Below, one piece after another: positions 8,621 through 54,413 of a DNA stretch of 64,000 nucleotides; the first letter of the stretch is position 1; each line of letters opens with the position of its first letter. A program made the translations under genes and the position numbers. This DNA is from Vermamoeba vermiformis (lineage: Eukaryota): positions 1 through 64,000 of the forward strand of contig JBEWZL010000083.1 in the NCBI GenBank assembly GCA_045837725.1, in the 5' to 3' direction. The notes beneath the pieces were generated by a model that was given only the letters and a program-made list of their open reading frames with translations, was not told where the DNA came from and ran no database searches.

Positions 8621-10419
8621 TCAGTACCGTTTCAGCTGATGCGGAAAAGTTTCAAGTTGCGTCAAGTGTGTAAACGTGGAGCTGACCCTCGATTCTGTGT
8701 AGACTTCCCAGTGTCGCAAATGCTGCAAATGAGTCAACATGAGCACTTCATCTTCACTATTAATTTGCGAAATTCCTAAACGATAAAGACGTGTCAATTT
8801 GGCGACACTTTGGATCAGATTCGTTTCTTCGATGCCTGGCCAAGTAGTCAGTTTTCTAAGCGGCAGTTGTGAAATTACACTGTAATCTATTTTCTTTTTT
8901 GCTAAATTTGTATTATTGTCGTAAACAACGTATAATTGCAACTGAGTAAGATTTTTCAAGTGCGACAAATTGTTCCAGCCTTCGTCGGGCAGATCTGCTG
9001 CTTCTATTTGCAACGTTTGTAAAGTTGTGAGGTATATGTAATCATTTGACTGTAATGTTGTCCTTCTCAATGTTAGCTGTTCGAGATCTGTCAAAATTGA
9101 AATACTTTCTAATCGAATATTTTCTTCAATGTCATCGGAGATGTTAAGTTGCAAATGCTTCAATTTCGTAAAGCTATTTATAAAATTTCCGTATTTGGAA
9201 TAATCTGTACTCTTGGAAGCTTCGAAAAGACGTAAAGTTTCGAGATTTGTTAGATGCGTCAAACTTTCATGATCAAAATTGTTGGAAATATGCAAATGAA
9301 GTTCCTTAATTGAATCGCATAATAGTGATAAATCCCCTGTTACTTTTAAGGATAAGTAAGTCAGTCGGGAGTGAGTTGAAAATGGATTCGAGCTTGCGTT
9401 GCAGGCAATTGACTCCTGTAATGACAAGCACCGTAGCCTTGTTAATGGTCTAATCTCTTCTAATATATCTACTGTATTTAGAAACTCGTATGGATCCATG
9501 TAGAAATGGAGCTCTGTCAGATTTAAATTGTTGCGGATGTACGGTACGTTCAAACTTGATACTCGAAGGCTTTGGAGCGATGTTATATTACTGATATCAA
9601 TTCCTCCATACGAATCGTTCTTATTTGCAATATTAAGTTGCGTCAAATTGGTTAAATGGTTCAGATCGTGGTCTTCGGATGTTGCTTCGAATGTTAATTT
9701 CAACGAATTTAATGAGCAAGGTAATTTTGCTATCAAATCGACTCTTTGTTTAATATCAACTGATAATTCTTCAAGTTGTAAGCTATTATTAGGCAGGCAA
9801 GTTAGATTTGGCAAGTGGATCTTCTTGAGTCGAGGAAACTTGCTTAATAGCTCATATCCCCAGGATCCTATAACTTTCCAGCTCTCTAAATTGATCAATG
9901 TTGATAATTTCAGCCAATAATCTTCGGCTACATCTTGTGCTAATGAACGTGGGTTGATCTGAACGGATTTGAGTTGTGTAAGTCGGCATATTTGATCAAT
10001 AAACTGTTTCGTTGATACACTACGTGGTATAATATGCATTGATATATCGAGTGGATAGTTATACTTCGATAAACGGTTCATAAGCCAAGAAAAAATATTA
10101 GGACCAAGATCGTAAAACTTGAATTGTGAAATCTTGACTGATTTAAACCACAATAAGCTGACCAATCGTGCAGATCGCTCACTTGGTCCATCTAAAAACG
10201 TGAATAAGTGTTCTAAAATCTCTGGAGGCAATGATTCCTAGATGAGAAAATAATTAACTTTTATTATTATTAATAATTCTCGTTCGATAATATAAATAAA
10301 AAAATATCTAAATTATTGTGCAAATATTTTAATGAAATTAATTTGATTGAACAGAGACGCTCTGAGATCAGCCAAGCACGTAGACAAATTTTCGTACGTC
10401 TTGTTTTAACTCTTACCAT
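8621..10419 (-). CDS. F-box/leucine-rich-repeat protein
   Basis: An ATG-only exon at 10419-10417 splices to ESLPPEILEHLFTFL (F-box), followed by LxxLxxLxL repeats in one long exon. Confidence 0.8.
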
Positions 10420-14228: not shown

Positions 14229-15880
14229 ATGGGCATCAAAAGCTCCAAGGCTTTCTGGCCGCCGAACTTTCCTTCTGAAGATAGTACGTCATCTGCTCTC
14301 TTAAGTTCAATTAGCAATTATTTAACTACAAAATATTACGCTCGTGTCGAGGATTTTACAATAAAAGCAATAGGAGTGGAATTAAATAATTATTAAAATT
14401 TAAATTGACAATTATCAAACCATCGCATCCACAACCAAAAATTAACAAATGCTAATATGGGCCACAAGCAGAATAAATTTATTGTTGAAATAATTTACCA
14501 TTAGAACACTTTTGAATTGACGCTTACCTATCAGAGACAATAACTCTGGGCAATGGACCAGCAGCAAAGTTTGAGTTAGATGAACATATTTGGATAAAAT
14601 ACAACAATCGCACTATTGCAATTATGCCTTCTCATTATTCTACCGATCCGCATACCAAAGAAGTTCTTTACACGCATTACGTCATTGGTTATCCAAACAG
14701 ATCTTTCGCACCGATAGAAGTGAATGTTGGAGAATCATTTACGTAAGTGTTGGTTCATTCGATAGTCGAATCTGGATTTAAACAATTTCTGCATCTAAAG
14801 TTTTTTTTCAGCCACAGCAAAGCAAATTTTCTAATAACACGATTGCTATAGATTATTCGATGTAAAAATTGAATTGGCTGAAGCTCAAAACGCTCCTACT
14901 GGCATAACTACCAAACATATCGCTTCAAAAGCTGTCAAATCCGATCCCGTCGAACTTCAGTTAAATACTACGACGCAATTTGACTTCAAAACAGTTATGA
15001 GATATTACGACAACGATTCTTACTTCTATCTTACCCTTGGATCGATCGGAGAACGACACGTTGAGTTCTTTATTTGGAATGGTGTGCTGGACCTCGTTGA
15101 AACCGTCTCTTTTAGATCTAACAAATGGTTCAAAGTCGGAGATTTCGTTTTTACTTTGAAGGGTTCTACGAAAGAAACTGCTGAGCTCTATATTAAGAAA
15201 CAGACTACGTAAGTTTCTTCGGATCAAAGGATGACGTGTACGGTAGATCTAATTGTTCGGTTAGGCGTGATGTTGCACTTGGCAAAGTTACTCTATCATT
15301 CGATGAGATTATAAGAATGAAGGATAATGATAAACTGGTTACTATGCAAGTCGTTAAAATCGCACCTTTGCATCCAGGCTATTTCGATCTGTGGTGCACA
15401 TTGGATGTCGCAGGTCTAGATCAAATTACTGGGTATCTTAAGGACATGCGCGAAAAGGAAAAACAAGAATTTGCAATAACTTATTCTGTTCGATGCAAAT
15501 CGATCCAACATCCCGAGAATGAATCACCAAAGTATAATTTAGAGATCAAAGTCGTTGACTCGCCGACGGTTAATTTCAACGAAGAGTTTACGTTAATGAA
15601 AGGCCAATCAGTTACATTCAAAGGAACGGATCTGAAGATCAGATTCGATGGTAGCTCGCATAAACACAAGGCTGATGGAGGTGGACCCGTTGGATTTTTT
15701 CATTTGACAACGACGTTAAATGGGAAAGAGTCACCACAAGTACGATATTCGGTCAACAAGGACGGCACTGCTGCATTTGAAATCGATTCATTTGCAGGCC
15801 AGTTGCTCCGAACTAAGTACGATCAGTCTGTTACGTTGATCATTTCACGGCCTCCAAACAAAAGAACCAAAAGAATATAG
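14229..15880 (+). CDS. Uncharacterised beta-rich protein with probable N-myristoylation (tandem copy 1)
   Basis: Exon 1 reads MGIKSSKAFWPPNFPSED. Exon structure and sequence are shared with 16243-17905. Confidence 0.7.
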
Positions 15881-16242: not shown

Positions 16243-17905
16243 ATGGGTATTAAAAATACGAAAGGTTTCTGGCCACCGAATTTTCCTGCCGAAGATAGTA
16301 TGTGATCTGTTTACAAATCGTTGCTTTGGATATTTGTTCGCTTTATTTATTATGCAAATAATCGATTACCATTTAATTCCTAATTACTTTCTTCGTGGCA
16401 GCACTCCTACGACATCAGGAATTTTCTGAATTAAATTATTTTTTAAAATAATTACTCGCAGTTCCCCAAATTAATATTAAGCTATAATTTACTAACGTAC
16501 CTCCTTAAAATGATAATATAATTTGATTATTCATTAATTGTGACGATAAATTGAAAATAAACCTAACTCGGCTCTTCAGAGACAATAACCTTAAAAGTTG
16601 GATCGACAGAACAAATAGCATTCAAAGGACATACGTGGGTAAAATATAATGGTCGCACGATCGCAATAATGCCCTCGCACGTTGGAAGCGATCCAGTTAC
16701 TAAAGGCGTTCGAAATGTGAATATGAGGGTTGGGTATGCTAGCAAAACATATGCGCCGATAGAAATAAACGTTGGGGAATCATTTACGTAAGTATTGGCT
16801 TAATTTTAATAATTAAACGGAATTTGGATGTACACGATCGGATTTAAAAATTCAAACAACAAGTTACTGATGCTTCTGCTTATAGATTATACGACGTTAA
16901 ATTCCACTTGACCGAGGCGCAATCTACCAATGAACTTAGCTACAAATACAACGTCTCTAAGGCGACTAAATCCGGTCCTGCAGAACTAAAATTTAATACG
17001 GCTACACAACTGAACTTTGATACGGTATTAAAACACACTCATAATGGATCGGACTATTATCTTACTCTTGGATCGATCGGAGAGAAACACGTGGACTTTT
17101 TTATTTGGAATAGTTCGTTTGAAGTTATCGAAAGTGTTTCTTTTGGAGATAATAACAAATGGTGCAAACGTGGAGATTTCATTTTTAATTTGCAAGGATC
17201 GACTCAGGATGCTGCCACTATTGTAGTTAAGAAGCAGACAACGTAAGTGAAAAACACAAATTTTTGAATTTTAAGGCTGATCCGGATCTACGTTACAGGC
17301 GTGATGTTGCACTTGGCGAAGTTACTCTATCATTCGATGAGATTATACGATTGAAGGATAACGCCAAATCGGTCACTATGCAAATCGTTAACTTTGTGCC
17401 ACCAAGACTTTTCGATCTTTGGTGCACACTGGATGTCGCAGGTCAAGATCAAATTACCGGGTATTTAAGCAGAATGGTTGAAAAGGATTTAGAGGAATTT
17501 GCAATTGCATATTCAATTGAATACAAGTCGGTCCAAATGCCTGTCAATGACGCACCGAAATTCAACCTTAAAATCAAAGTGATTGACTCGCCGAAGGTTA
17601 ATTTCAATGAAGAGTTTACGTTAATGAAGGGCCAATCGGTTACACTAAATGGAGCGGATCTGAAAATCAGATTCGATGGTAGCTCGCATAAACATAAGAC
17701 GGACGGCAGAGCGGTTGGCTTTTTCCATTTGACGACGACTATTCGTGGAAAAGAAAAAGAAAATCGGTTCTCGGTCAAGGACAATGGTACTGCTTCGTTT
17801 GATATTGATTCGTACAATGGCAAGTTGATCAAAACTTCGTACGATGCATCCGTTACGCTACAGATCCAGAATGAGGAAGAATGTAAAGAAAGCAAAGAGT
17901 ATTGA
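16243..17905 (+). CDS. Uncharacterised beta-rich protein (tandem copy 2)
   Basis: Exon 1 reads MGIKNTKGFWPPNFPAED. Shares FDLWCTLDVAG and NFNEEFTLMKGQSVT with copy 1. Confidence 0.7.
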
Positions 17906-22076: not shown

Positions 22077-24364
22077 ATGGCCACAGATGTACAGAAACCA
22101 ATAGTCGAAACAGCATCCGACTCTGGTATTTTGCAACCAGTTGGTGACGCGAAGGGTATCCTACAGATTAAAAAATTTATTAGCGCTTTAGAGCTATTTA
22201 TTGAAAATAATTATAATCATAACTATTATTAAATATTTGTGTGCAATTTATTTTGCATGTAAATCAATTTATCTAATTATTGGACGGATTTCCTTAACAA
22301 AAACAGAAATTATTGACAAAACAGCAACATTCGTGGCGAGGAATGGTCCTAATTTTGAACAGAAGATTTTAGCAAAAGAGAAAGACAACCCAAAGTTCGG
22401 CTTTCTTCGACCGGGCAACCCGTACTACGCATACTACCAACAAAAAATTCGCGATATTAGACGAGTAGAAGGACTTTCAGATCTCAGCGATCAAAATAGT
22501 CTTATTAGACAAGCAGAAGAGAAATTGAAGTTAAAGAGACAGTTATTAGGCGAAGAAGAGGATGAAGCGTCAGCCGGTAAAAAGAAAAAAGACAAGAAAA
22601 AGGAAAAACAAAATATTCCCCTCGAACCTCCTCCAAAGGACGAATGGACTATTGAACCACCCACATTGACACCTTTAGAAGTCGATATTATCAAATTGAG
22701 CGCACAATTCGTCGCTCGTAACGGCAGACAATTTGCGATGGGCTTGCTCAATCGTGAGATGAAGAACCCTCAATTTGCTTTCTTACAACCAAACCACTAC
22801 CTTCACACATATTTCAACAAGCTCGTAGAGAGCTACACTAAAGTCATTTTGCCGCCTCGTGACATGGTCGACAAGCTCGAGATTTCTATTGCGGACAAGC
22901 AAACTATTCTCGACAGGGTCATGAAGAAAGTTAACTGGGAACGAGCGCAATTAAAGAGCGAGGAGGATATGCGCGCCGAAGAAGAGAAGGAGCGTAGCTT
23001 AATGGCTGCTATTGATTGGCACGACTTTACTCTCGTTGCTACTATTGATTACGAGGACGAACCTACTCCCGCTGCTGGTGCCAGCACTGGTAAGTCATAT
23101 CACTGTTCGAACTATATGAGACTCGATATTGACCTTGACTGTACAGCTGCTGATGAGGAAATGGACGTCGAGATGGACACTGATATGGAGGTTGATAAGC
23201 CTGCAGAGCCCATTAAGATTAAGCCTAACTATCAACGAACATCAGCAGCTGCTCAGCGTGCCACGCAGTACCAAGTCTGCCCTCGTTGCGGTCAAGAAAT
23301 TCCTTTGGACGAAATGGCTGAACACATGAAGATCGAGTTGAGCAGAGCTGGTGATCGAAAGCCTGGCGCACCTGCTGCACCGAACAAAGAGGCCTTCTTG
23401 CCTGAAGGTGACGATATGGCTCGTTACTTGAACAATATTGCTAAGCGCAGAAGCGATATTTTTGGTGGTGAAGAAGACGATGATATGGACGAGATTGACG
23501 AGCGAAACAAGAACAAAGGTAAGCTTCTACACTTAAGCTCGTTATGTTACGTCGAGCAGTAATTGATGGTTTTGTTTGTAGTAACTTGGGACGGTCACAC
23601 GAGCAGTATTCAAGGCACGACAATGGCTGCTTTGAGTCAGATCAAGCCACCTCCTCCAAAGCCCACAGAGGCTCCTCGTGCCCCTGTCGGTCCTCAGATG
23701 GGCAGTGGTGTTATTGCTCAACCTCCCAGACCCGCACAAACACTCTCGATGCCTCCTCAACCCGTTGGTCAGACTGCCCCGCTAACGATGCCCCCGATGA
23801 TGTATCAACCGCCAATGGGTGGTGGATTCCCACCTATGGGAGCTAATCCTTATATGATGCCTCCTGGCATGGGTGGTGCTCCACCAATGGGAATGGCTCC
23901 TTCGCATCCACGACCGGATGCAGAAGACGAAGGTCCTTTCAAGAGACAGAGAATCGACGAGGAAGGTGCTTCGAACGCCGCCGAGTCTAAGCTTATGTCT
24001 GAAGACGAGTGGTTGATGAATCACCCTGTAAGTATTAATTTTTTTATCTTCGTTCGAACGGATCTTACCGATCTATTTTTAGGCTCCTGTTACAGTCAAG
24101 ATTTTAGTCCCGCGCAACCCCGAAAAGCCTGAGTGGTTCATGAACGGCCAGACTATCGACTTGACTGTCTCGCCTTCTGAAACTGTTCGTGCTTTGAAAG
24201 AAAAACTCCAAGAAAAGTTGGGAGGCATGCCTTCTAACAAACAGAAGCTTAGAGCTAAGGAACTTGGCTTCTTGAAGGATGAGAAGAGTATGGCATACTA
24301 CAACTTCGTTTCTGGTGTCGAATTAGAATTAGGCATCAAGGAACGTGGTGGAAGAAAGAAATAA
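22077..24364 (+). CDS. SF3A1: Splicing factor 3A subunit 1 (two SURP domains, PRP21-like region, C-terminal ubiquitin-like domain)
   Basis: IIDKTATFVARNGPNFE, IIKLSAQFVARNGRQF, IDWHDF, EHMKIEL, VTWDGHT, LGIKERGGRKK. Confidence 0.95.
22156..22306 (+). other. Probable U12-type (minor spliceosome) GT-AG intron
   Basis: 5' splice site GTATCCTA; branch point TTCCTTAAC at 22290-22298, 8 nt before the end of the 3' CAG. Removing it gives in-frame GDAK-E-IIDKT. Confidence 0.8.
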
Positions 24365-39485: not shown

Positions 39486-42400
39486 ATGAAGAGTATTAAT
39501 ACGTTGTCTAAGGCAGATCTAAGGTAAGGAATCTTAGTAGTCCACTATAGGAACAACGGCAAAATTTACTCCCCTCTCGGATTACGTTGATCTTGCACTG
39601 ACAGTACCTAATAAGGCACTATCGTCACTACTGAACAACGTCAAGTCGGTAGCTGTCCATTCGTCTATTTAAAGGTAAGTATTTAATCGCTCTCGAAGTG
39701 ACGACCACAAGCAAGTTGTAGAGGCGATATATTCTAGGCTAAATAATAAGAAAATAGGTAGATATAACATTGTCTCACGAATTCGCAAGCCTAAAGCACC
39801 TCTCGGACAGCTGAAATACATCTGGTAAGAAACTAGCTGGATGTCAATTAGTATTTAAATAATTATGCAATGAATTAATTCATAGTCATTATTTATATTT
39901 CTATAGTTTACCAATCTAAACGCGTTTCATAATAATAAACATATTGAAACAACAGAATCACAATAATCAGAAAATTGCCAGATTTACTCATGGAACTGCC
40001 GCCGTTCGAGTCTAGCGGCAGTGTGAATGAAAATCCTTACGGATATAAATTCAAGGAAATCAACGCACCTGGCAAAGATGTCTCGCTCGCGTTTTGTGGC
40101 GTGCATGCGGATCACTTGGTAGACCTGACTGGTGCCAGAAGTTCTTTGGCTACTCAATACAAAAATAATGGTAGGGTGTTTAGCTATTCTATTATAAGAA
40201 TGACATTGTTTTCGTCGCAGTTAAACTAAAATTTCTTCATTCGAAGTTTGGATTCGCAATTTTTTTATTAGTCTCTGGATCTAACAAACTCCATCTATAG
40301 AGGTTAAACTGCAAATACATTCCGAAAGTATATTTATGGATGTAAAACTGTCGTTCTTGCAAGAGTACGAGAACGCGTGGTTTTTCAAGCCGGAAGTGGT
40401 TAAACACCAAGGTTTAATTCTGCTAGTAGGCTCGTTTGACGAGAATGAACTTGGTGGTGTTTTTGATACAGTAAGCATATGTATTTATTACTAGTTTTCC
40501 TTATTTAGTTTTCATCAAGCGGATCCAAAACTAACTATTTTGTTTTTTCAGAACTTTTTGTACTCCATCAAAGTTAATAATTCTATGCGCTACATGCTTC
40601 TCGAAATGCAATATGATGCAATGGCTGAACGGGTCCCTGATGATATTTTAAATGCTGTTGGCAAGTGGATCGGATCTGTGTAAGTAACATGTTTAAATTT
40701 AAAAATCATACTGACACTAATCATTCAGATCAAATGCGTCGATGGTTTGGACAGTTCCATTAACTGATGTACAAAAACGCTATATGTCAGTTATTGTGAC
40801 AAAGAAGCTTGCTAATGCACTCGCAAAAGAATTTATTATTCCGTAAGCAGATCTGATCCAACTCATAACGGTTCTTTACTGACTAATAGCTATTTAGAGA
40901 GTACAAGAAGCTTAGACAAAAGCACCAGTATTTAGCTGATGCTCGTTGGGGAAGTTTAAAGAAGTTCCTGTCATATCGCAAAATGGATCCAATCCAAACG
41001 ACAGATCCACTTGGCAACACTATAGCACACTTATCAATATTCAATCAGTTCTTAGATGTGTTTATGACAATAGCCAAGACCCATCCAAAGCTCATTAACA
41101 TTCAAAATATCTTTGGCAACACATCTTTGCATAATGTAGGATTATTGCATTTACGCAAAAAAGATCCTTCATATTTCAACTGGAACTTATTCTGGGAATT
41201 ACCGTGGGACTTTTCAATTAAAAACAAGAAGAACGAAACTGGCATTGAAAAGTTGTGTCAGATGCCAGCAACAGAGATATTTGCAGCTTTTCAAGCATTA
41301 GTAGCCAATGTTGATGCATGGAGTCAAGTCACCAAGTGCCATGATGTATCAAAATTATTGTCACAAGCTGTCATTGGCTATCTCTCATATTATACAGACA
41401 AAACAGTTACTAAGAGTGAGGCTGATTCTTTGCATGCTGTGCAATTCTTTGTTGAAACAGGTAAGCTAATACTTGTTTTATTCTATTGTTTGTGGATGAA
41501 ATTTCTTATTTGACTATATTATAGGTGCCAATGATAAAGATGCCATGTTAACTGCTGCTTTGTCCAATCACCAAGCCTCAGTTGCTAATTACTTGTCACA
41601 GCTTGGTATGTACACACATCAGCTGTAATCTTTGTATTGTACACACTAGCTAATTCCTGTCTTAGTCACAGGTGCAAATATCACATTTGCACATGTCACC
41701 ACTGCATTTCAATCTTTGCATCGGCCAACTGCTGATGTTGTATTGAAGAGGTTCAATTTCAGTTCTATCACTTTGGCAGAAATCAATTTACTCTGTTCTG
41801 ATGCTGTCATTGCTGGGTGGACTGATGTTGTCAGGTTTCTTGCCAAAAAAGGTAAAATCCCTCTGTGAAGTTGCTATTGGTAGACATCATGTTTGATTGA
41901 ATTTAACCTGCCTTGAGAATTAGCTAATTCTGTTATCAGGGGGGAAATTTCCCTTGGAATTGATCAGCAAAGGCAAGCCAATTTTGTTGTCAATGGCAAA
42001 TTTGATTGCTCAATTGAACAGCACCACAATTTTACCACTGAAGTACCTATGCATTGATGCAATTGAATGTATGGAAAGGACAGATTTCATGCAAATATTT
42101 GCAGCCATGCCAGAAGAAATCAGATTGCTGTTTCCTAATAAGGAATTATGGAGGTGGACTCTTTTTTTGGACAATGAATGCAAACGAAATCGATTTTTGC
42201 AGCTGTATAGAGCTATACACAGAGCACAATGCTCACAGTACTACAAAGAGCAGAAAGAACGTGCCATGCAAATTTGTATTGGCCAAGTTGAATTTGAAGT
42301 GCATCGTGAAGTGCATTACAGCACTGGTGGACTAACAATTTATCTTGGAAAACAGTTCTACAGACTTGTTTGTTGGCATCCAAGATTGAGTACTGTTTAC

Positions 42401-42685
42401 AAAGTACTCCCAACTAAGGCTGGAGAAGAAAATGCCCAACTACTAGATAATCTATTGCAATTACTTGGATGGCCATTAGAAGATGCCTATGTATTCTTAA
42501 TGATATGCTACAATGCTTTGCTGGAACCCAACGCCAAGTCAATGACAGATCAGGTCTTGAAATTGAAAGCTCATCATTTTTTCTTTCCAGAAACAGTTCA
42601 TACAAATATGGCTCCTCCTGATTGGTACAAAACATTTGTTAAAGAATTTTATGGATTAGATCCACCAAAACATCATTTGTATTGA
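39486..42685 (+). CDS. Multi-exon ankyrin-repeat-containing protein (5' end approximate)
   Basis: DPLGNTIAH, NIQNIFGNTSLH, VQFFVETGA, GWTDVVRFLAKKG. Confidence 0.6.
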
Positions 42686-43711
42686 ACAGAGCTCCAAATT
42701 GTAACTATAAAATTCAGAATAAGGAATAAACCTTATGTTTAAACCTGAGATTTGTTGGCATTAATGCAAATCTGATCAGATCAAAGTCATTCTACAACTT
42801 ACATCATGATTTACTATATTTGGTAGTGTCGTCATAGCATGATATGTCTGTCAAGTGTCACTGCGTGGTGAGGTGTTTGGTCGCGTGTCACGTAACGAGA
42901 AGCCAAAAATATATCTGTAATTACGATACTGATCTTCAATCACGTTCGCAGTGTTTGCACTAGCTTTGGTCTTGATTTGGAGCGCTACATCTTGTACTTG
43001 AACTACATGTTGCACGCTTGTGCGTGGATCCAGGGTCACAAAACGAACTTCGGCGCATTGACCTTTGTATCAATAGTATGCCAAATATGTTTAGCTGTGT
43101 AGTGGGCCTTTTATTAAGGCAAATTAGATGAAATCTGCTGAAAGGCTTCGTCAGGTAACTTCGTGTAACAGACGGATCCAGATGCGACTTACTTGCTTGT
43201 GGGAAATACCAGGAGCATCTATCCGCTTGATGAAAATGCTCGTAGTGGTCGTATTATGCTTAGAGATAATACGAACGTCTTTATCTCGAGGTTTGAACTC
43301 TTCTTGAGTCAACAAACTCGCAGATGGAGGCACTTTTAGCTAGAAACATTGCACCGTGAGTTTAACTCGGATGAACTCGCAAAATATTATGCTTTGAATC
43401 ATTATCGGTTACCATATTGTTTTTCAGCTTTGTGGGTTCATTGTTGGTTGAAAAGAGCTTCGGATGTTGAGAAACTATTTTTACGGTCCTAAATTGAATA
43501 AAAAATATTTAAAAATAGTAACAATAATTGTACAGCAGTTAAAACGATGCCACTGTAAGCAGATTTAAATTGTTTCTGTAGAACTAAGAACTAAACTACC
43601 CATTCTACATAAAAAACTCTCTGAGTACGTACTTGCAAGCATTTCGACAATTACAATTATTAATATGTTATTACATTCTGGTCTGCTTGTCTTGGCGCGA
43701 ATGAAAATAAT

Positions 43712-43832
43712 CACTACCGAATGTAAAACCGCAAATCACACCCGTGATTTTTTTCACAAATCACAGAGTATCTCTTGTGATGGAAACTATTCTCACCGGG
43801 ATGGAACTCACGGTGGGATTTTGGTTTGCGGG
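43712..43832 (+). repeat. Left TIR and subterminal repeats
   Basis: CACTACCGAATGT followed by CAAATCAC x2, GTGATTT, TTGTGAT and CTCAC x2, in both orientations. Confidence 0.8.
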
Positions 43833-44049
43833 GAATGAGTCATGAAACACAACGGCAGTTGTACCGATATCCGATGCATGCGTTATTGATTAGGAGCAGA
43901 ACACACATTTGTATTGCAAGAATGATAAAAGTCTTTATTGAATAACAAGACAAATAGCATTTACATGTACCTAAAACAAAAAACAATATGCAGTGTGCAC
44001 TCAGCAGCGAAACAAAAAACTGGCAGTAATGCATTTCTAATTGTATCTA

Positions 44050-45094
44050 TTAATCTTCTGCTACGGACAACTTGTCTGCAGTTTCATCTTCATCGTTATC
44101 GCTGTCTGCGGGAGCTGATCTCTAAGAAGTGTCAGTAGTGATTTGATAGATGATGCGTCGCTTACAGGGTAGGTTCGGTCAACTTTTCTTTTCTTACGTG
44201 GAGGTTCGTCCAACTAGTTAAATCATTAACAACAATTGATATCAAGATTCGCAGTGAGTTAGGATACTTACAGGGTTTTTCATTCTGTCCAAGATCAATT
44301 CCTTAATCTGGATTATAGTTAAATTAGTTAGTTTGGCGAATATTTAACTTACGACTGTTTTGGCTAACTTTTTGTCTTCCGGAGTAGGATTTGTTTTGGT
44401 CCACTGACCAATTCGTAGTATTCGATCTACATGGTCGGAAATATCAGCCTCTTCAATTGTAGGATTTTCTTTAAAGTATTCATTAACGGCAATAGCAGTG
44501 TTATCGACGAAAGTTTTATATAAAGTGCAGCGTAGGTATTCCTTGGACTTAAATAAACTAGTTAAAACTAAGTAAAAAAGTTAGTCATACTCACTTTGTC
44601 AACTGCAACTTTGAAGACAGCTTGATTTTCTTCATTGTCGGGGTCTAACGCAAGAGCTTCAGCAATAATCTCGGTTATCTTTCCAACGTTCATGTATTTA
44701 TCATTAGCCCAATGCTTTTTAAGTGCATTTCTAATTTTCTCCTATAGCAAGTGTGAGTCAGTAGTAGTTTATTAAGTTTACTTACCCATTCGTCTTTGTC
44801 CAAAAGAGTTTTAGATACAACTTTCCGCATTGAAGAGCGCAAGGTGGTTACTTCGTCGAAAAGGGTTGCATTTTGTTGTTTTATGGCTTTCATTTCGGAT
44901 TGAAGAGTCGCAAAAAACTTTTCAAAAGGCTTTAGTGCTTTAGCCATTGTCGCCGATGAAACCTGCAAGGTAATTGAGTAAAGAAAAGGAGAAGTATGTA
45001 GTACCGTTGAGGAGTCCGCAACTTTCTGGTCTGAGAACAGGCTATCTTGAAGCTGTAATCTTTGCCAAACTTTATTAGCAGTGTTGTTGCTCAT
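44050..45094 (-). CDS. Transposon accessory protein (coiled coil + helical domain + NLS), multi-exon
   Basis: Splices in frame: MSNNTANKVW...LQSEMKAIKQQNATLFDEV...EKIRNALKKHW...PPRKKRKV...SVAED*. Confidence 0.65.
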
Positions 45095-45158
45095 TGAAAC
45101 AGGATGATAAATTACCGAAGAAACGTGAAATTTGGTACTTGGTAAAAATTTATTAAAT

Positions 45159-48100
45159 TTATTTGGCCGAAAAAATTAGGCTGTGTTTTTTGTTATGCTT
45201 GTGAATTACATCACAGTATACGCAAAAATACATATCGCAGTCAGAGCAATACAAGGCGTAATGAGAAAACATCTTCTCGCAGTTGTTATTCGCGCAAATA
45301 CCTGGCTTGTCGAGTTTTTGCTTGGTAGGTAATGCAGCAGCGGTGTTAACTTTGTTATGCAGCGCTTGCATTGAATTGTTAATGCTTAAGTATAGCTTAT
45401 TAGACGCAGATATTTGTTGAATAGTTGCTGCGTTGCTGAAGTAGATATCTTCGAAGCAATATTCATCCGTACTAAAGATTGTATTAGTAGTGCGGTTTAG
45501 GTAGAATAACATACGGTTTGGATTCGTAAAGCCAATTATGTCCATATTCGAACAAATATGTCATAGGCAAAACATCCCATTGCAGCAGCAATTGATTAGT
45601 TGTATGCGGCACAAGTGTAATGTTTGTTGTTGACTTGGCGATGAGAATCTCACCAGGATACAGCGTAAGCACTTTAAGTCCTGCCTGTTCTGCTTGTGTC
45701 TTTGTTTTTTCTGGATGCAATAGTTAATACGGAGCAGTATATTTTGGTTCGTTGTACCTGAAAGTTTATTGAGGGCTTGCTGCTCGTTGTCAGTTGTACA
45801 CATAATTGCGTGCGTCATGCCTGCCTCCGTTAAATTGATCGCAACATAGTAAAAGTCATAAGAGCTCTGGGAAGCGTTAGAACCGTGCGGCAATCAATAA
45901 ATTATTATACCTGGTTAATCGAGATTGATTCATTGAGTGCAATTGTAATTCGATGGAACATCTTCCAACGCGCGCTGGCAGTCAGCTGAAAGAAATTGGA
46001 AGTTGATCTGACATCGTCGGGTAGAATTTGATCTAATTGCGTAAAAGGTAGTGACAAAATTTTCCTACTGTCAACTTGAGTGCGTGCAGTGGCAAAACGA
46101 AAGCCAGGCAGTAACGCGTTTCTAAGTCTGTAATATGTCTGTTAGTCTAACCGTCGCGTTTGTTAAACTTGTGGAATGCTCACCGTTTTACAGTGGTAGC
46201 AATATCTGCTTGCTTTGGTCTAGTAATAAACCATTGATGTAATTCAAGCAAGCAATAGAAATGCTGCTCAATCTGTGCCGTGTCCAATAGGGGTCGTTTG
46301 TCGTCGACAATTGGAGGGAGCGGTTGGACTTTGAGAAAGTAGTGCTCCCAGAATTGGTAACAAAAATTACTGACGGCATTGTGTGAAGCGTTCGGAAGGT
46401 CTGTGCTAATGTTGCGAGCAGCCATTTCCACTGCAAGTTCCACGTCGTCGCCGGAGTCCAAGTGCACCACCCTTTTAATTGCCGTCTGTTTAAGCAGAAT
46501 TGCAATACATAGTGCAACATCGTGATATAGTGTTTTTGACGTCTGTAAATGGGTTAGTAAAAAAGCGATGGTGAGTCAGTTAGTATACTTACAGTGCCCT
46601 CGAAAATATTCACATGCGCAGTTAATTCGTTTTTGACGTTATACGTTGTTAAGGTGTAAGTAATGTTCGATCCAGCGTCATAATCTTGTAATACTAAAAT
46701 ACGTTGTCATTACTGTAGTTGGTTTGGGTTTTACTTACCCGCAATTGGAGTATTGCTACCGACCCATTGCCGAACGGTGTCAACCTTCAATTGTGGGCTC
46801 CGTACGGCATTAATAAACACTAAGCAATTGCTAGGTTGCAGAGCGTCGCAGAAGATGTTTGTTTCGCAGTCGTAGTTCCAAAATGTAAGTAGATTTTCCA
46901 GCGCAGGTGTCAAGCAATCTCGATATGTCTGTTGATCAACAGAATAGGGCAGCAATAAGTGTTTGTGTTGATGCCACGATACATCAATACTATCTGCAGT
47001 TTTGAATTTCTTTCCGTTCGTGCAAGTAAATGGATATGAGGAGTCGAACAGTTGCGAATTACTTGTTGACTGCAGGCCTTGTTGCGTTGATGTTGCACTA
47101 GGCACCGTTGAGTTGATCGATTTTCCGTGTGTGACTTGTGTGTTTTTGTTGGTGTCGTTGATGTTTTCCTTTGAGCTTAAATGGTTGGCTAGGCTAATAT
47201 TATTCCTGGGTTTAAGCGCTACTTCGTAACGAGGGCGCTTATTCCTTGGCTGCGTTTCGGCATTGTCATCTTCATCATTGCTATCGCTATCCGAAATTTG
47301 TCGTTTACGTGGCAATTTTTTGTGCGTTGACTGTGAGTTTTCGTCGTTTTGGTCGTCGACGAGGGCTAAATCTTCATCGTTGTCTTCGGAGCCGTTCATG
47401 ATACTTTGGAGCTTGTCAAACACGTTTTTGGAAAAGTCATTATTGACGTGCAAGTTTGAAACTTCCTGCTGTTTTGTCTTTAGATGATCGGCTGAAGTAG
47501 GTTGCCGAATGTTTTCAATGGCAGTACGATCGATTTTGGTTTTGTAAATATCACTAAACAGTGTTAATTCATCGAATTTAAAGCTGTGGTGTTAGCAGTA
47601 CATACGTGACTTTTCGCCTCAAATTTTCCAATTCTGCATCAGCGATGGCTGCAATTGTAAGGTGTGCATTCTTGTCGATGTTAGAAAACTGGCGCTTTAG
47701 GCTGTCGATCGTCGCCTTTATCTCACGTTCAAGACTAATTAGCTTATCAGGATTGTCAACATTCGTAATAGAATGAACGCAAAAACTCTCGGAGAAGACC
47801 TGCATAGTTGGTGGTATCAGCTTCTCCAGCTGCTTGAGACAATCCTTGATTCCGTCGGTAAAGTGGTTCTTCCAAAGTAACACTACCTTTCGGAAGTAAT
47901 CTATTGCAAATTCATTAATTTAGTTTAAATTGCATCAAAATTAAAGTAACGCAAATTACCTTTACTGGTCGTAACAGCGCCGCACTGACTTTTGAGGCAG
48001 CTGTACGCTTCCTCTGTGACCGCTTTTTTGTTAATATTTTTGCCTCTGGTAATTGAAAGTTAGTACGTGGGTAAAAATGACTAAGTTAGTACTTTGGAAT

Positions 48101-48739
48101 CAACGAGCAATAAAGCTCTGCTAGTTCGGTGAAGGAAAAGTAGTCGACTAGCTTATTTGCCGTCGCACAAGCGACGACCACCTGAAGCAAATTAGAACAA
48201 CACAAGATTGGTTTAATTTAATTCACATACTTTCTTGAGCAACGGCCGGATGTTTTCAACGCTTCCTGGCTGAGTTAGCACGATTGCTCCCCATTGGGTG
48301 ATGCCAAGAGCCTTGGCAGCATGGACCCGCTTAAATCCATCGACGACACAGTATGTATTACGATGGAGCTGGTCGGACAGCTCCTTGCGTTGTTCGTCGT
48401 CGGGTCTCAAGCAAAAATTAGTTCGGTAAAAGTTGGTAGACGTTCACTTACTCCCATACAAGTAACGTAGAATGCTCCAAAATGCCATTTTGGAGGTGTG
48501 TGACCATCATTTTCAAGCTTTGTTCATTGATGGACTTGACGGGCCCCAGCAGATCAATTGTTGCAACGTCGTTTAACTGGACTTGAACATATTTTGTTTT
48601 AAAATTAAGTTGTCTAAAAATGAGATAAATTAATACGTTATTTAAGGGCAGCACAATTAAATACAACTTACTCGCAGTATTTTTTCTGCTGATCTATTGT
48701 TTGTTTTTTTGAGGACGTGCCCTTTTTTTTTGCAGACAT
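45159..48739 (-). CDS. Transposon-borne ParB/Srx-like + degenerate KDM6-like JmjC + Cys/His Zn-finger protein
   Basis: Phase-compatible GT-AG introns link all exons from ATG 48739 to the stop at 45159. Motifs: YCVVDGFKRVHAA; FRFAT...LPDDVRSTSN...FYYVAINL...LYPGEILI...LQWDVLP; C..NC...C.DC..YFC.YC..H. Confidence 0.7.
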
Positions 48740-48794
48740 TGGTGGAGCTCAACGGTTATTGAATTAAAAATAAACAGCGAATGACGCGAACCGT

Positions 48795-48887
48795 GCGTGT
48801 CAAAAATATCGAATGAAATTTCCCGTTAAGTCCGCTGCGTTGAATCAGGCTTAACTGCGGGAGATTTCCCTTCGTTATTTGACACGC
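48795..48887. promoter_or_regulatory. Imperfect inverted repeat in the divergent promoter at the element centre
   Basis: GCGTGTCAAAAATATCGAATGAAATTTCCCGTTAAG versus the reverse complement GCGTGTCAAATAACGAAGGGAAATCTCCCGCAGTTAAG. Confidence 0.65.
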
Positions 48888-48925
48888 GTTCTACTTTGAA
48901 TATTTATTGCAACGTAAACACCACA

Positions 48926-51461
48926 ATGGACAAACAAATACACTCCGACGACGTTTATGAAAGCATCATTGAGGCCCAAATTAAACGAGGCAAGTTGACA
49001 CATCTACAAATCGATTATTACATTATAAGATTAAACTAATTATAACTAATAACACTACGTTAATATTCATAAATATAGCAGTATTTATTAATTAATACTG
49101 TGCTGTGCTCGTATTATTATTTTAAAATAAAGAACGGAAACTAATCTGTATTTTCGCTGCGTTAGTGTCTAAAAACGGCAAAAGAATGGACGACATGATA
49201 AAATATTTTATTGAGGCCTCCAAACAACCGCTGAATGAAACGTTAAAGAGTACGTTGTAGATCGCAGCAATTATTTGACATCTAATATTTTTCATTTTTA
49301 AAGGAAATGATATTATACGGGTTAGGCAATTTGAATGGCGAGCTGAGCAGTTTTTGCGCGTACGGCAAAACTTCTGGTTGGATGACGTTATAGTAAATTC
49401 CCTTGCCATGTAAGTTTTTGCCAGATCGCGCGTACTTTGAAATAGTATTAATTTAAAATACAGGTTGTTTGTAGAGAAAGCAAACGTAAACGATAAAGTC
49501 ATTGACTCTATTTTCTTGGAGGCCAACGAGTCGCGACAGCTTGTGGAGCTTCGTAATTATCGCTTCGTATACGCACCGTTATTTGACCGTACTATCTCCC
49601 ATTTTCAATTGCTTATTATCGACGCAAAGCGCAATTCTGCAATATTTTTGGATCCGAATCCACAACAAAAGAAAGGTATGTTCTTAAACAATTGTTAAAA
49701 AGTGCGTAGTATACTCATTATTGTAGGCACGAAGGCAACGCTGAATGCTCTGAAATCAAAGCTGGAGCGTGCTATTCCTGAGTTGTCTGCAGTCGCCAAC
49801 TTCTCTGTCGTGTATCCACAGGCAACGCAGCAAAACGCGTTCGACTGTGGGTTGTATGTACTATCGTACATATACGAACAATGCAATACAACGGCTACCG
49901 TGAACAAATTTTCAACTTGCTTAACGCGACAGCAATTGCTCGATTTGGTTCTTTCGTGCGTCTCAGAGGTAAGCAATCGGTACGAACATTGAATAAACAT
50001 TTATTCTAACGCAAAGTAGGGTGACAAATCTCGAGTGGAGCGCACGTTCAAAAAATTCGACGAGTCTAATTCAAAATTAATATTGGGCATCAGTACGGCG
50101 CATGAGCTTAGAGCGTTACAAATCAGCGAAGGTACGTATAGTTTTCACAAACAGCGCTTATTTATATATAAAATTAGATGAGTTGCTGCGCTACCTTGAA
50201 AAGTTAAGCAAACTTATTCCGCAGTACGTTCCGAACGAGCCCTCAGCGAGCTTGTGCGACACGATTGCGCATTTACACGATAAATACATGTACAATTATT
50301 CTTATGCTTTCATTTAATAAAGTCAACGTGGCTGACTACGAACGGCCTGTTCTACACAGTCACCTTACACTCGTTCGCGATGCAGCGCAGCACCTCCAGC
50401 CTTACATTTGGAATTTACTAATGGATCCAGCAACGGAATGGTGGTTACCGTTGCATGCTTTTAACGGTGGAAATGCCATGCCAAAGATCTACTGCGCGTT
50501 CTCGAAGGATGTTGACTCATTACGACACTATGTACCTCATAGTACTCGCGGAGGAAGGCCTCTTTTGGCTTACCGTGCGCAATCAATTGATCAATTTACA
50601 TTGAAAGCAGAATTCGACAAGCTCCTAAACCGATACGGATTTGCTTCTTGGAATTACGTTACAATTGTCCTTTACTCGGGAAGCAACTCAGGGATTAGTG
50701 CGCACCGAGATCGTCACCAACTACTTGGCTATGGCGAAGCCGAAGAACAAATAGCGTCGTTCATTTTTGGAGACGAAAGGTAATCACATGCTTAATACAT
50801 AATTTCAATACTCACATATTTTAGGACATTGACCATAATTGCTGGACAACACGAGGTTTCCATTAATAATCCGTCGGGTTGCATGTACCTAATGCAAGGC
50901 ATTCAAAAGTACTCACAGCACAAGAAGGACGGCGATACTGGAACTAGTGTTAGCGTCATTTTTAGGCAATTACTTCCTTATGCCGGGAATCAAAGCCAAG
51001 CAGACACTCTGAACGTTCGCGTTAACGTTCCGTGGTCTGATTTGCAGTCGACACCTCAAAGTTGGAGGCCAACTGCGATAGACTTGCATCAGGACATTCC
51101 GATGAAGACTGCGTGGTTTAATCGACTGCACTTCAACTTAAGTGGCAGACACAAAGCCGATAGACAGGCCGTTTTCAGTCAACGCAACAAGATAATTAGC
51201 GTTCTATCTACGTCACCAAGCAACATCGTTGACGACAATGCACAGCGGATTCTTTTCTATCTACCAACTTCTCACCCAAAAGCCAATGCGTTTGTCAAAA
51301 CGAACAAGCTCAGAATCAGTTTTAGGGTGTATTGCAAGACGTTCTATTTTGCGGACATGCCCAAAAATGCATACCTCTACTGCGGCGAGTATTATATCTC
51401 ACACAAGATTAGACGCTGCAACAAATGCTTCTATTTACTAATTAGGAAAACAGCAACGTAA
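48926..51461 (+). CDS. Transposon-borne Ulp1 (C48) protease + AlkB-family 2OG-Fe(II) dioxygenase + SRA-like fusion
   Basis: Ulp1: WLDD, SHF.LL, FLDP, QQNAFDCG. AlkB: NY..VLY, AHRD, IASF.FG..R, QKYSQH, SVIFR. SRA-like: W.NR....SGRH, IISV, DD, FRVY, YLYCGEY. In-frame introns (including 50290-50359) join the domains. Confidence 0.75.
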
Positions 51462-51571
51462 CCGCATTTTCGACGAAAACTACGGAACAAAGTTTGACCG
51501 GAATTGTGCCAGGATTTTGCGTGTTATCTGCATTACTTTTACCGTTCAATTTAATAAACCACAATTGTACA

Positions 51572-54208
51572 ATGAAAGTCAAATGGACCTGTACTTTGTG
51601 CGATAAGACACTCCTCGCACGTAACCGAAGTCGACACCTACTGGGCAAGAAGCACCTGCGAAAAGCTGCTGAATTGAACGACAACGAAAAAGATATAACC
51701 CCAATATCGGTAACAGGTGCATATTTGCAATACTGCTATTCATTAAATGATAAAATTGTATTTTTTAATTAATTTTTCGGATTCGAATTTAACTTAATCT
51801 TCTCAGCCAAAGACGATGAGATACTACTGGAGGAGGAGAGTCCGCACACGGCAATCGATACGGTCCAGCAAACTACTAGCACTGATAATTCACCTGAATT
51901 GACTATTGCAATGCTGATCCATCTGTATTGCACGCAGAAAAATGTCTCTCTTGCAAACGAGAAAACTCTGTTCAACATTCTATCGCTACCTCAATTCCAT
52001 GCACTTGATGTTCCAACATTTGCAAGCTTTCAAAAGCAAGTTAAGGCAATGCTTCAAATTATCCAATACGATACGATAACGACGCGCTTCAAGCATCCGA
52101 AGCAAAAGAATTACAAGCCACAAGATGCGTTCAAGCTGGGCCCAATTTGCGAAGTTCCTGTCTACAATGTACTTCAACACTTGGAGCTCTTCCTTCGGGA
52201 TCCACAATTCAGTGCTAGCATCGTTACGCACTCCAATTATAACGGAACAACGTTCTCTACATTTGATACTGGAAAGTACTTTCACGACTTGTGCCTTTCT
52301 CTACCCGTTGGAACAATTCCTATCTGCCGTAAGCATGAACGAAACTATTCCAAATAGCAAAATTATCTAACCATTCGCAGTTGATTTATACTGGGATGAC
52401 ACAGGAATTTCCAGCAAAAAGAAGTGCGGGCCAATATGGATTGGCATAGCCAATTGCAAACCAGACGTAAAGCGTTCAACCCAATCTCGAATGTTGCTAT
52501 CAATTGTCCCTGGCAATGCTGATATCAACGTTGTTCTTTCAAATTTCGTAGAGCAACTGTCTAAACTCCGAGTGCAGCAATTCTACTTTGGCTGCTTTAA
52601 CTGCTTCCTTACGTGCCATATTACTCTTTCTTTGGTACTAGGAGACGCTCCTGCTAGTAACGGCGTTATCGGACTCCGTGCACCAACTTGTTCAAATCCT
52701 TGCCGCTTGTGTTTGGTACCACTTCAAGAATTGAAGCAGATACCTGTCATTGATTTGACCATTAATACCGTGGACGATGTTACTTGGAAACTACGACGAG
52801 TTGATAAGCACATAGAGCTAGTATCTGACGTGCACAACAAACATAGACACGGCACAATGGAAGCACAAGAAAAACGATTAAAGGATGTTGGCGTATGCTT
52901 TTATTTGGTAAGTTCAATGCCCGACAAGCTACGGTTATTCATTTGTTGTTCAGAGTCCGCTATGCAAGATGCCTAATTTTGACATTTTTGCTCAATCGCC
53001 GTACTGCTTGTTGCACAATGAGTTTCTTGGTAAGTATTCTAAGTAGCAAAATACGAACTAATTACCTTAGGATTGATACCATTCCATATTGATTGCACCC
53101 TAGCATCGCTGTCTCTGAGCGACATCGAAATTGTCAACGATAGAATCGTCAGTTTTCCCAACCTTCCCAATTTACCTTCTTTAAATGCCGATATAGAAGA
53201 GCGCAAGGGATGGGAAGGCAAAGCATATACTGCCTTTTACAAAATGGCATTATTTGTCTTTCGGAAACTTTTGTCGAACAAGGCAATGCTTTGCTGGTGA
53301 GTGTTACTGCAACTGTTGCAATGTGGTTAATTATGAGTTTTAGGCGTGCCCACTGCCGCTTTATTAGATACCTAATGAAGCCATCAATTTCAAACGATAA
53401 AATTGAAAACATGATGGCAAGTTATTGGCAGTGGAAGCGTTTGTTCATCGAACTGTACCAAGCCCATGCTGACGCACAACCAAAAGCAGCTAACAAAAAA
53501 GCAATGACTTTTATTAATTTACACGTTGGCGAACACTGGGCGTACTATATAAAACAATACGGAATGCCAGCAGAGTACTCGACGCAACATTGGGAGTTGC
53601 TCCATCAACAAGTAAAAAGAAAAGAGAAGAAATCCAATCATCAATTCCCAGCACATGACATTGCCAAGCAGATAATCGAACAGAAAGTGCTTCAGTATCG
53701 CTTTGGTTCTATTGACGTATGTTTAACATTCTAATAACTTTCCGCTAAACTTTTGCAGGATATATGCAAGAGTCAAAGCAAAATAACCCGATTAGTGGTC
53801 AACGAATGTGTCCTACTGAACGTCAGCAGAAAACAAATACCGGACCATCTCAAATCACTTATTACAGACAATTTGGTGAACAAACAACTTCCCCTACACT
53901 ACAAGCAGTACAAGTCAGTAGTCTTTGGCGGTAGCAGATTTTCGCATGGGGACAACTTTAGCTTTAAGATTGACGGCGAAAAAAAGTTTGCCCAAATTCT
54001 TACCATAATCAACGTTGACTCATACACGGCATTTGTCGCTCAAGAATACAACTTCATGACACCAACTATCGATGTCAATCAAACAGAATATTACTGCATT
54101 TACCAAACTGACTCCTACATCGTAATGGATGTTACCGGAGCTCGCAAAGAGCAACTCCTCTACTGCGATGACTTGGATTGTTTCCTTGTCAATTTTTATT
54201 ATCAATAA
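51572..54208 (+). CDS. CACTA/Plavaka-like DDE transposase with N-terminal C2H2 (U1/matrin-type) finger
   Basis: CTLC...HLLGKKH; LYWDD (D1); VLGDAPA (D2); NPCRLC; FD...PYCLLH..LG; STQHWE..H (E); beta-rich C-terminus. Confidence 0.85.
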
Positions 54209-54309
54209 ATTTTACTATTATTAAAAATTAATTGCGCTATTGGTACTCAAACGATCAGATACCACTGTACATGAGGTTGTGTTTTGCTCTACATACGGTG
54301 CTATCTAGC

Positions 54310-54413
54310 TGTGATATGTATCACGCCGAGGAATTAATCACTAGTGATCACTCCTTGTGATCCATGCGTGATTTGAATCTCGGAGATATTCCCGAGTTCA
54401 ACTTTTGGTAGTG
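54310..54413 (-). repeat. Right subterminal repeats and TIR
   Basis: Dense GTGAT/ATCAC array (GTGATA, ATCACG, ATCACTAGTGATCAC, TGTGATC, GTGATTTG), a CTCGG..CCGAG hairpin, ending in ACTTTTGGTAGTG. Confidence 0.8.

Follow-up and report, generated by a model that had tools for sequence, protein, structure and literature searches.

What does the gene at positions 48926-51461 (plus strand) of a Vermamoeba vermiformis contig encode: a single protein in which an Ulp1-type protease, an AlkB-like dioxygenase and an SRA-like reader of modified DNA are fused, or separate products? And does it belong to the host? The window analysed here is the whole stretch of 64,000 nucleotides at the start of contig JBEWZL010000083.1 (assembly GCA_045837725.1, positions 1 to 64,000); it is eukaryotic DNA with a G+C content of 38.8%. 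A reading made from the letters of this stretch, hereafter the sequence-only reading, had described the gene as a triple fusion. We find that the gene is a passenger of a CACTA/CMC-type cut-and-paste transposon and not a host chromatin gene, because it lies between CACTA-type inverted repeats and beside a putative transposase gene. It appears to be a single transcription unit from which two proteins are made by the choice of 3' splice site after exon 6. We give a probability of about 0.5 to the reading we favour, in which this gene would be counter-silencing transposon cargo with a splice-dependent Ulp1-AlkB-SRA fusion.

The gene is intact and eukaryotic, with nine exons. The coordinates given in the sequence-only reading were exact, with the ATG at 48926 and the stop codon TAA at 51459-51461, and every motif that it quoted (SHF, FLDP, QQNAFDCG, HRD and TSVSVIFR) was located in the window. 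The interval is a string of exons and not a single open frame. Its introns are 45-54 nucleotides (nt) long, plus one of 176 nt, and their ends are GT..AG or GC..AG. A contig of 890 nt (depth 14.7) from run X3, which is RNA by guessed label only, starts at 48921 and aligned to the gene with six introns spliced out: 48990-49165 (GC..AG), 49250-49303, 49410-49463, 49676-49726, 49969-50019 and 50132-50177. As the DNA run X1 has no such splice joints in the same region, we take the X3 contig to be a spliced transcript. After splicing, exons 1-6 form a single frame from the ATG at 48926. Intron 1 (48990-49165, GC..AG, 176 nt) is far longer than the others and has been spliced out of the X3 contig; for intron 8 (50780-50824) there is one in-frame GT..AG option. 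The X3 contigs differ from the window at T49409C, which turns a Met codon at the end of exon 3 into Thr, and at A51371G, so the transcribed copy is not identical to the copy in the window. Two other RNA runs, X20 and X22, contained 1 and 0 raw reads, respectively, on this stretch; the organism may be absent from both. The exons, and the domains that they encode, are as follows.

48926..48989 (+), exon 1, with the start codon; its junction to exon 2 is in the X3 contig
49166..49249 (+), exon 2; junctions in the X3 contig
49304..49409 (+), exon 3, where the Ulp1 domain begins; junctions in the X3 contig, homologous open reading frames (ORFs) in the related metagenome contigs L001 and L003
49464..49675 (+), exon 4, with the Ulp1 catalytic His (49600-49602) and Asp (49651-49653); X3 junctions, Pfam and motif
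49727..49968 (+), exon 5, with the Ulp1 Gln residues (49828-49833) and catalytic Cys (49846-49848); X3 junctions, Pfam and motif
50020..50131 (+), exon 6, a linker also found in the relative P0003; its donor follows codon position 1 (G)
50178..50317 (+), exon 7, an alternative terminal coding exon; exon 6-7 junction in the X3 contig
50323..50779 (+), exon 8, the first part of the dioxygenase, with His (50703-50705) and Asp (50709-50711); fold matches and family alignments, acceptor AG at 50321-50322
50825..50978 (+), first part of exon 9, the end of the dioxygenase, with His (50919-50921), Ser (50946-50948) and Arg (50964-50966); fold and alignment
51075..51461 (+), last part of exon 9, the SRA-like domain and the stop codon; model residues 250-377, fold matches

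Relatives of the gene were sought in several ways. An alignment of the first dioxygenase exon, used to scan metagenomes, retrieved three contigs, L001, L002 and L003. L001 and L002 share an overlap of 5123 bases with a single mismatch and were counted as one element, with L003 as the second; below, the three loci are the window, L001 and L003. When pieces of the window were compared to L001 with tblastn, the whole neighbourhood was recovered in the same order and orientation, with 31% identity for Ulp1, 53% for the dioxygenase exon, 51% for the SRA exon, 36-62% for four downstream ORF pieces and 28-47% for five upstream minus-strand ORFs. L003 retains Ulp1, dioxygenase and SRA at 24-37% identity. 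Among 1.84 billion representative proteins there were 13 matches, all unannotated, 82-238 amino acids long and each corresponding to one exon. A word-indexed search gave 2 matches among 1022 candidates, a metagenome scan with a single protein gave 72 pattern matches of which none was confirmed, and a search for shorter homologues, limited to proteins of 30-44 amino acids, found nothing. The family is very rare.

Whether the three domains are joined depends on the splice made after exon 6. In the X3 contig, the acceptor at 50177 is used and the contig continues to 50242. The frame entered in this way adds 46 further residues in exon 7 and runs into two consecutive stop codons, TAA at 50315-50317 and TAA at 50318-50320, both overlapped by AATAAA (50316-50321), giving a protein of 318 amino acids with the Ulp1 domain only. 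L001 and L003 share this exon 7 tail together with the double stop and the AATAAA. Joining the exon 6 donor to the AG at 50321-50322 instead gives an open frame of 1914 nt that encodes 637 amino acids and contains Ulp1, AlkB and SRA in order; the three domains share one frame only when exon 7 (50178-50317) is skipped. The exon 6-to-8 join is in frame in all three loci, for which DNA is available, and, judging from the read-through translation P0003, it would also be in frame in the source of that sequence.

Comparison with L003 is the most informative on this point. In that locus, 2 additional nt separate the acceptor from the stops (TAATAAACAG compared to TAATAAAG), and the dioxygenase frame has shifted together with the AG, which is hard to explain unless that AG pairs with the exon 6 donor. 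Phase would otherwise be unconstrained, and from its conservation we infer that donor and acceptor are joined. A small X3 contig that starts 2 nt before exon 9 carries four additional letters that do not fit the intron, as a spliced exon 8-9 junction would give. Three other routes past the double stop were considered and rejected. A +1 ribosomal frameshift at ATT TAA does not fit L003, where the frames are identical and the AlkB frame follows the AG and not the stops; a donor inside exon 7 at a Cys codon has no GT or GC in L003, and the segment downstream of it is conserved as protein; and the GT donors at 50225 and 50290 are out of frame with every acceptor, with the RNA contig reading through 50225.

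The alternative is that there is no fusion, such that the upstream exons make the 318-amino-acid Ulp1 protein only and AlkB-SRA is a separate protein, from its own transcript or by internal initiation. The exon 6-8 junction was not seen in RNA; the only junction observed after exon 6 enters exon 7, where the Ulp1 frame stops at TAA TAA beside AATAAA. Furthermore, X3 depth falls about threefold past exon 7: it is 14.7 across exons 1-7 and 2-4.7 across exons 8-9. Together, the single junction and the drop in depth make the fusion at best a minor form in X3. An in-frame ATG is present at 50304 of the window, and L001 has one just within the AlkB frame. However, these candidate start codons sit at different positions, the dioxygenase frame begins directly after the double stop without a conserved ATG, and L003 has none upstream of the point where conservation of the AlkB domain begins. 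In addition, the acceptor AG and the exon 6 donor agree in phase at all three loci, although the distance of the AG to the stops differs. We therefore regard two wholly separate proteins as unlikely, and consider it fairly probable that the fusion protein is made, probably as a minor form. With respect to the single fused protein of the sequence-only reading, the in-frame 637-amino-acid fusion is supported by the three-locus comparison, but it is not the sole product, as RNA shows the Ulp1-only form.

The first domain of the fusion is the most readily recognised. Peptidase_C48 (PF02902) scored 30.4 bits against a Pfam cut-off of 20.7 (E 4.3e-7, profile positions 79-183 of 217), a score obtained on a single-frame read-through translation (P0002) with X at stops; scored singly, the two largest Ulp1 exons reached 15.1 and 17.1 bits. 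The Ulp1 motifs are His 49600 (TISHFQ), Asp 49651 (IFLDPN), and Gln 49828/49831 with Cys 49846 (QQNAFDCG), and His, Asp, Gln and Cys are all kept in 3 of 3 loci. C48 proteases strip SUMO-type modifiers from their targets. The sequence-only reading had reported an Ulp1 domain with an intact C48 triad, and both parts of that call hold.

The middle domain was folded alone (mean predicted local distance difference test, pLDDT, 77.7; predicted template modelling score 0.80). An earlier model of the dioxygenase together with the C-terminus was poor in its dioxygenase half and reached only Z 6.2-6.3 to FTO, ALKBH3 and ALKBH2. In a VIA comparison against 48,161 chains, the top five matches of the dioxygenase model are all of the AlkB family: ALKBH3 (Z 15.1; root-mean-square deviation, rmsd, 2.8 over 180 of 211 residues; 18% identity), ALKBH2 (Z 14.7), E. 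coli AlkB (Z 13.8), FTO (Z 13.7) and ALKBH6 (Z 13.1). The first chain from outside the family, a prolyl hydroxylase, follows at Z 11.9. The Foldseek rows listed are all ALKBH2, ALKBH3, AlkB or FTO, starting from E 2.1e-8, one of them bearing only the title 'RNA dioxygenase'. Both the double-stranded beta-helix and the N-terminal nucleotide-recognition part of AlkB enzymes are present in the model according to VIA and Foldseek. The predicted iron ligands are His 50703 and Asp 50709 (AHRDRH) and His 50919 (YSQHKK); among family members that cover these sites, the window and L001 included, HxD is kept in 7 of 7 and the second His in 11 of 11. The last Arg (50964, TSVSVIFR) is kept in every member covering that site. 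The AlkB call of the sequence-only reading is thus borne out by the best folds and by HxD...H...R.

The cofactor site is less regular. That reading had noted Ser in place of the first Arg of RxxxxxR, and this substitution is family-wide. The members read S-x-S-x-(I/V)-F-R, with Ser at this position (50946 in the window) in all of them, where E. coli AlkB has R204-Y-N206-L-T-F-R210. Ser also stands at the position of Asn206 throughout the family, and the residue two positions ahead of the conserved Tyr, Asn120 in AlkB, is Val; the correspondence of positions comes from motif alignment and not from a residue-level structural alignment. Arg204, Asn206 and Asn120 contact 2-oxoglutarate in AlkB. 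Sequence searches were largely negative. Pfam PF13532 (2OG-FeII_Oxy_2) gave no match up to E 1 for pieces of the window, L001 or L003; phmmer and profile searches of PDB sequences with the AlkB and SRA parts returned only a 20-residue chance match to TrwC (E 0.47); and an hhalign comparison of the family to one sequence, that of E. coli AlkB, yielded a probability of 1%. The Atlas placed the domain at 0.87 and 0.86 to clusters that are partly annotated PF13532, which serves as a lead only. Because no PF13532 profile matches, the dioxygenase is AlkB-like by its predicted fold only and is not an AlkB member by sequence.

The C-terminal 128 residues (model residues 250-377) had a pLDDT of 85-97 and were the most confident part of the first model. 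The best VIA match is the SUVH5 SRA domain (Z 13.7, rmsd 2.5 over 117 residues), followed by KRYPTONITE (13.1), TagI (12.9), SUVH6 (12.1), UHRF1 (11.9), NP95 (11.4), SUVH9 and ScoMcrA (10.0), and AspBHI, MspJI and LpnPI (8.1-8.4). The best 12 VIA rows for this domain are all SRA or SRA-like DNA-recognition domains, and Foldseek matched the SUVH5 SRA with E 2.1e-4. A YDG-like motif, Y-L-Y-C-G-E-Y, is found at 51372-51392; its family form is Y-x-Y-(C/L)-G-x-Y. SRA domains bind to double-stranded DNA, from which they flip out a modified cytosine, as the titles of the matched structures also indicate. Pfam SAD_SRA did not match single exons or read-through translations, so the domain is SRA-like by fold only, according to the model, and divergent in sequence. 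The SRA assignment, which the sequence-only reading had held to be its least certain, therefore has fold support. For all three domains, the matches exceed what chance would give.

From these parts we propose the following mechanism. Use of the near acceptor (50177) would include exon 7 and give the Ulp1-type cysteine protease of 318 amino acids, while use of the far acceptor (50322) would skip exon 7 and give the protein of 637 amino acids, in which the protease is followed by the AlkB-family Fe(II)/2-oxoglutarate dioxygenase and the SRA-like reader. The SRA-like domain would guide the enzyme to DNA with a methylated base, and the AlkB domain would oxidise the methyl group at that site. The protease would take SUMO or a related modifier off chromatin or transposition proteins. 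Combined, these activities would keep the element unsilenced, a role as proposed for the TET/JBP cargo of fungal transposons. The substrate and biological role are putative and are proposed from the kinds of domain that are present.

Several results weigh against this proposal, beyond the splice junction and depth discussed above, the guessed label of run X3 and the absence of Pfam and PDB sequence matches for the two distal domains. The Ser, Ser and Val at the Arg204, Asn206 and Asn120 positions may mean that cofactor binding is altered or lost. The identical dinucleotides that flank the element (described below) are palindromic and may be part of the repeat instead of a target duplication. 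The ratio of observed to expected CpG is 1.15-1.28 across the window; as there is no depletion, heavy CpG methylation of the host is not indicated. Taken together, the CpG ratio, the repair-enzyme folds and the altered 2-oxoglutarate contacts disfavour a 5-methylcytosine (5mC) target or an active enzyme.

The most specific form of the proposal is that the gene encodes a transposon-borne eraser of DNA methylation, derived from AlkB, docked by the SRA-like domain and switched by splicing, which would oxidise N6-methyladenine (6mA), N4-methylcytosine (4mC) or 5mC. We hold this only tentatively. Enzymes of the AlkB family oxidise the N-methyl groups of bases. In vitro, oxidation of 5mC has also been reported for ALKBH2, ALKBH3 and AlkB (PMC6582317).

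A competing explanation is that AlkB-SRA repairs alkylation damage, 1-methyladenine or 3-methylcytosine, in single-stranded or excised transposon DNA, or that it demethylates RNA of the element. The nearest folds are indeed those of the repair enzymes ALKBH3, ALKBH2 and AlkB, and the lack of CpG depletion in the window fits as well. AlkB domains have reportedly been found in plant RNA viruses and in an orchid Ty3/Gypsy element (PMC544882 and PMC9289625), where RNA demethylation is said to have been proposed. For divergent fungal SRA domains fused to AlkB, Iyer et al. suggest that they may read N6-methyladenine (m6A) in RNA or DNA (PMC4738411). However, the neighbours of the C-terminal domain at a Z of at least 8 are all readers of modified bases in double-stranded DNA (SUVH proteins, UHRF1 and restriction enzymes), and a repair enzyme would need no reader of a regular mark. 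Furthermore, a role at chromatin is suggested by the SUMO-type protease with which these domains are paired and by the TET/JBP cargo known as a precedent. Repair or RNA demethylation is a serious but less likely competitor, and counter-silencing by the fusion remains the reading that we prefer.

The transposon itself spans 43712-54413 (10,702 bp) and has CACTAC termini. Its features outside the Ulp1-AlkB-SRA gene are as follows.

43712..43750 (+), left terminal inverted repeat, starting with CACTAC; the best CACT[AG]/[CT]AGTG pair in the flanking zones, with 23 of 40 bases matched; flank AT
44690..48666 (-), minus-strand set of transposon genes; five ORFs with counterparts in the same order in L001, at 28-47% identity
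51572..54208 (+), multi-exon gene for a putative zinc-finger and DDE-type transposase, with C-x2-C at 52701 and H-x3-H at 53522; same order in L001, 36-62% identity
54375..54413 (-), right terminal inverted repeat, ending in GTAGTG; aligns with the repeats of L001; flank AT

In L001 the inverted repeats are 44 nt long and 82% complementary (113-156 and 9549-9592), with CACTAC at 121 and 9584, and L002 ends exactly at the CACTAC terminus. The four ends of the window element and L001 align with an invariant CACTAC..AA.GT..AA. The L001 repeat sequence itself had 0 matches in the window when up to 3 mismatches were allowed, and the repeats of the window were found by CACTA-anchored comparison. On both sides, the flanking dinucleotide is AT in the window and TA in L001, with no 3-bp duplication. 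The transposase gene begins at ATG 51572 with a C2H2-like finger, and its CRLC (52701) and HVGEH (53522) motifs are both kept in L001. In PMC12730594, the CACTA/EnSpm-Mirage-Chapaev-Transib (CMCT) group is described as having C(2)C and H(3-4)H transposase motifs, CA..TG termini and duplications of 2-5 bp. The Atlas placed a piece of the transposase at 0.94-0.96 to clusters with Transposase_21 (26% of members), RAG1 RNase H and Plavaka, again a lead only. Pfam gave no match for the transposase, and in a search for longer homologues none of 589 candidates was significant.

Some further features of the element should be noted. The minus-strand ORF set is conserved and divergently oriented in both elements (44690-48666 in the window and 1103-4259 in L001, both on the minus strand). 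One of these ORFs (45162-45560) has a B-box-like zinc finger that scored 23.3 bits, below the cut-off of 24.1, and another has an acidic Ser/Asp-rich stretch and a basic patch. On the other side of the cargo gene, the transposase ATG overlaps the stop of the SRA ORF in L001 (6626-6640) and L003 (about 2480-2495) within ATGAATAAA, which contains AATAAA; in the window (51459-51574) it lies about 110 nt beyond the SRA stop. Judging from this arrangement, the transposase may be in the same transcription unit as the Ulp1-AlkB-SRA gene. En/Spm makes two proteins through alternative splicing. Over 6 kb, DNA run X1 has 118 contig pieces, 27 of them just 95-99% alike, which fits several diverged copies and is not to be read as a copy number.

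It could be argued that this is a host or domesticated gene that happens to lie near the remains of a transposon, given that it is intact and spliced and that no second copy was found within the window. However, it sits between matched CACTAC repeats, and the L001 element, only 31-62% identical, has it in the same slot, flanked by the minus-strand genes and the transposase, so we consider a host origin very improbable. Weaker still is the idea that the middle domain is a TET/JBP-type and not an AlkB-type dioxygenase, to which the HRD motif, TET-like, and the His-to-Arg spacing of 15 residues, as in TET, could point. TET/JBP is the dioxygenase known from CMCT transposons (PMC12730594), but NgTET1 ranks only 17 at Z 10.8 compared to 13.1-15.1 for the five AlkB-family chains, no TET is among the Foldseek rows listed and the Atlas leads to PF13532 clusters, such that we give this idea almost no credence.

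The window also has features outside the transposon. An EF-1-alpha-like GTPase is encoded at 6883-8050 (minus strand) and is a housekeeping-like host gene, as presumably is 22192-24132 (plus strand), which encodes a protein resembling splicing factor 3a subunit 1. The adjacent ORFs at 15197-15880 and 17231-17905 (both plus strand) encode similar proteins and form a tandem pair. Just left of the transposon, the bin 40001-44000 has a CpG observed/expected ratio of 0.66, compared to 0.99-1.46 in the other 4-kb bins; it contains the ORFs 40890-41513 and 41924-42685.

Enzymes that undo silencing have so far been seen on transposons mainly in the fungal TET/JBP elements; plant VANDAL elements carry anti-silencing factors. 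If the proposal is true, transposon-borne demethylases would have arisen a second time, independently and with different chemistry, and an AlkB enzyme would be acting naturally on an epigenetic DNA mark chosen by its fused reader. Such a protein would be a natural reader-plus-eraser module with a directly testable substrate. Coupling to a SUMO-type protease under the control of splicing would tie the erasure of a DNA mark to SUMO-dependent silencing in one gene.

How, then, does the locus compare to known systems? Like ALKBH2, ALKBH3 and E. coli AlkB, the dioxygenase has HxD...H, the final Arg of RxxxxxR and a Tyr some 10 residues upstream of the first His; unlike them, it carries Ser at the positions of Arg204 and Asn206 and Val at that of Asn120, and it is only 12-18% identical to these proteins. 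The C-terminal domain shares its predicted fold with SUVH5, KRYPTONITE, UHRF1, TagI, ScoMcrA and MspJI over 112-127 residues (Z 8.1-13.7), along with a YDG-like motif near the C-terminus. It differs from known SRA domains in its low identity (11-16%, and 6-8% to AspBHI, MspJI and LpnPI) and in the Cys or Leu that replaces the Asp of YDG.

As the sequence-only reading had stated, fusions of AlkB (AlkBH3 clade) to SAD/SRA are known in fungi and are in print (Iyer, Zhang and Aravind 2016, PMC4738411). The present protein is like them in combining an AlkB-type dioxygenase with a divergent SRA domain, predicted to act on methylated bases. The fungal proteins are described as cellular proteins, whereas here an Ulp1 domain and a transposon context are added. 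No sequence relation to the fungal AlkB-SRA proteins was found among the 13 matches from 1.84 billion representatives. Plant CACTA-ULP and MULE-ULP elements carry a C48/Ulp1 domain (PMC2528002); as described there, these plant elements are without AlkB or SRA, and their ULP part is frequently attached to the transposase.

Fungal DNA transposons (Kyakuja-Dileera-Zisupton, EnSpm, Plavaka and ESTA) carry TET/JBP genes (PMC12730594). Our searches of the open-access literature found no report of an AlkB-type enzyme in a DNA transposon, nor of an Ulp1, AlkB and SRA triple or of the splice switch; the supplements of PMC4738411 and PMC12730594 may list related proteins. The element reported here resembles the fungal TET/JBP transposons in being a cut-and-paste element with an Fe/2-oxoglutarate dioxygenase beside the transposase, 5'-CA..TG-3' termini and possibly a short target duplication; the fungal ESTA elements have a TA duplication. 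Unlike the TET/JBP cargo, its dioxygenase is AlkB-like by predicted fold; it shares a protein with an SRA-like reader and, when exon 7 is skipped, would also be joined to Ulp1. Each pair of parts has a precedent, but for the triple combination none was found in the open-access literature.

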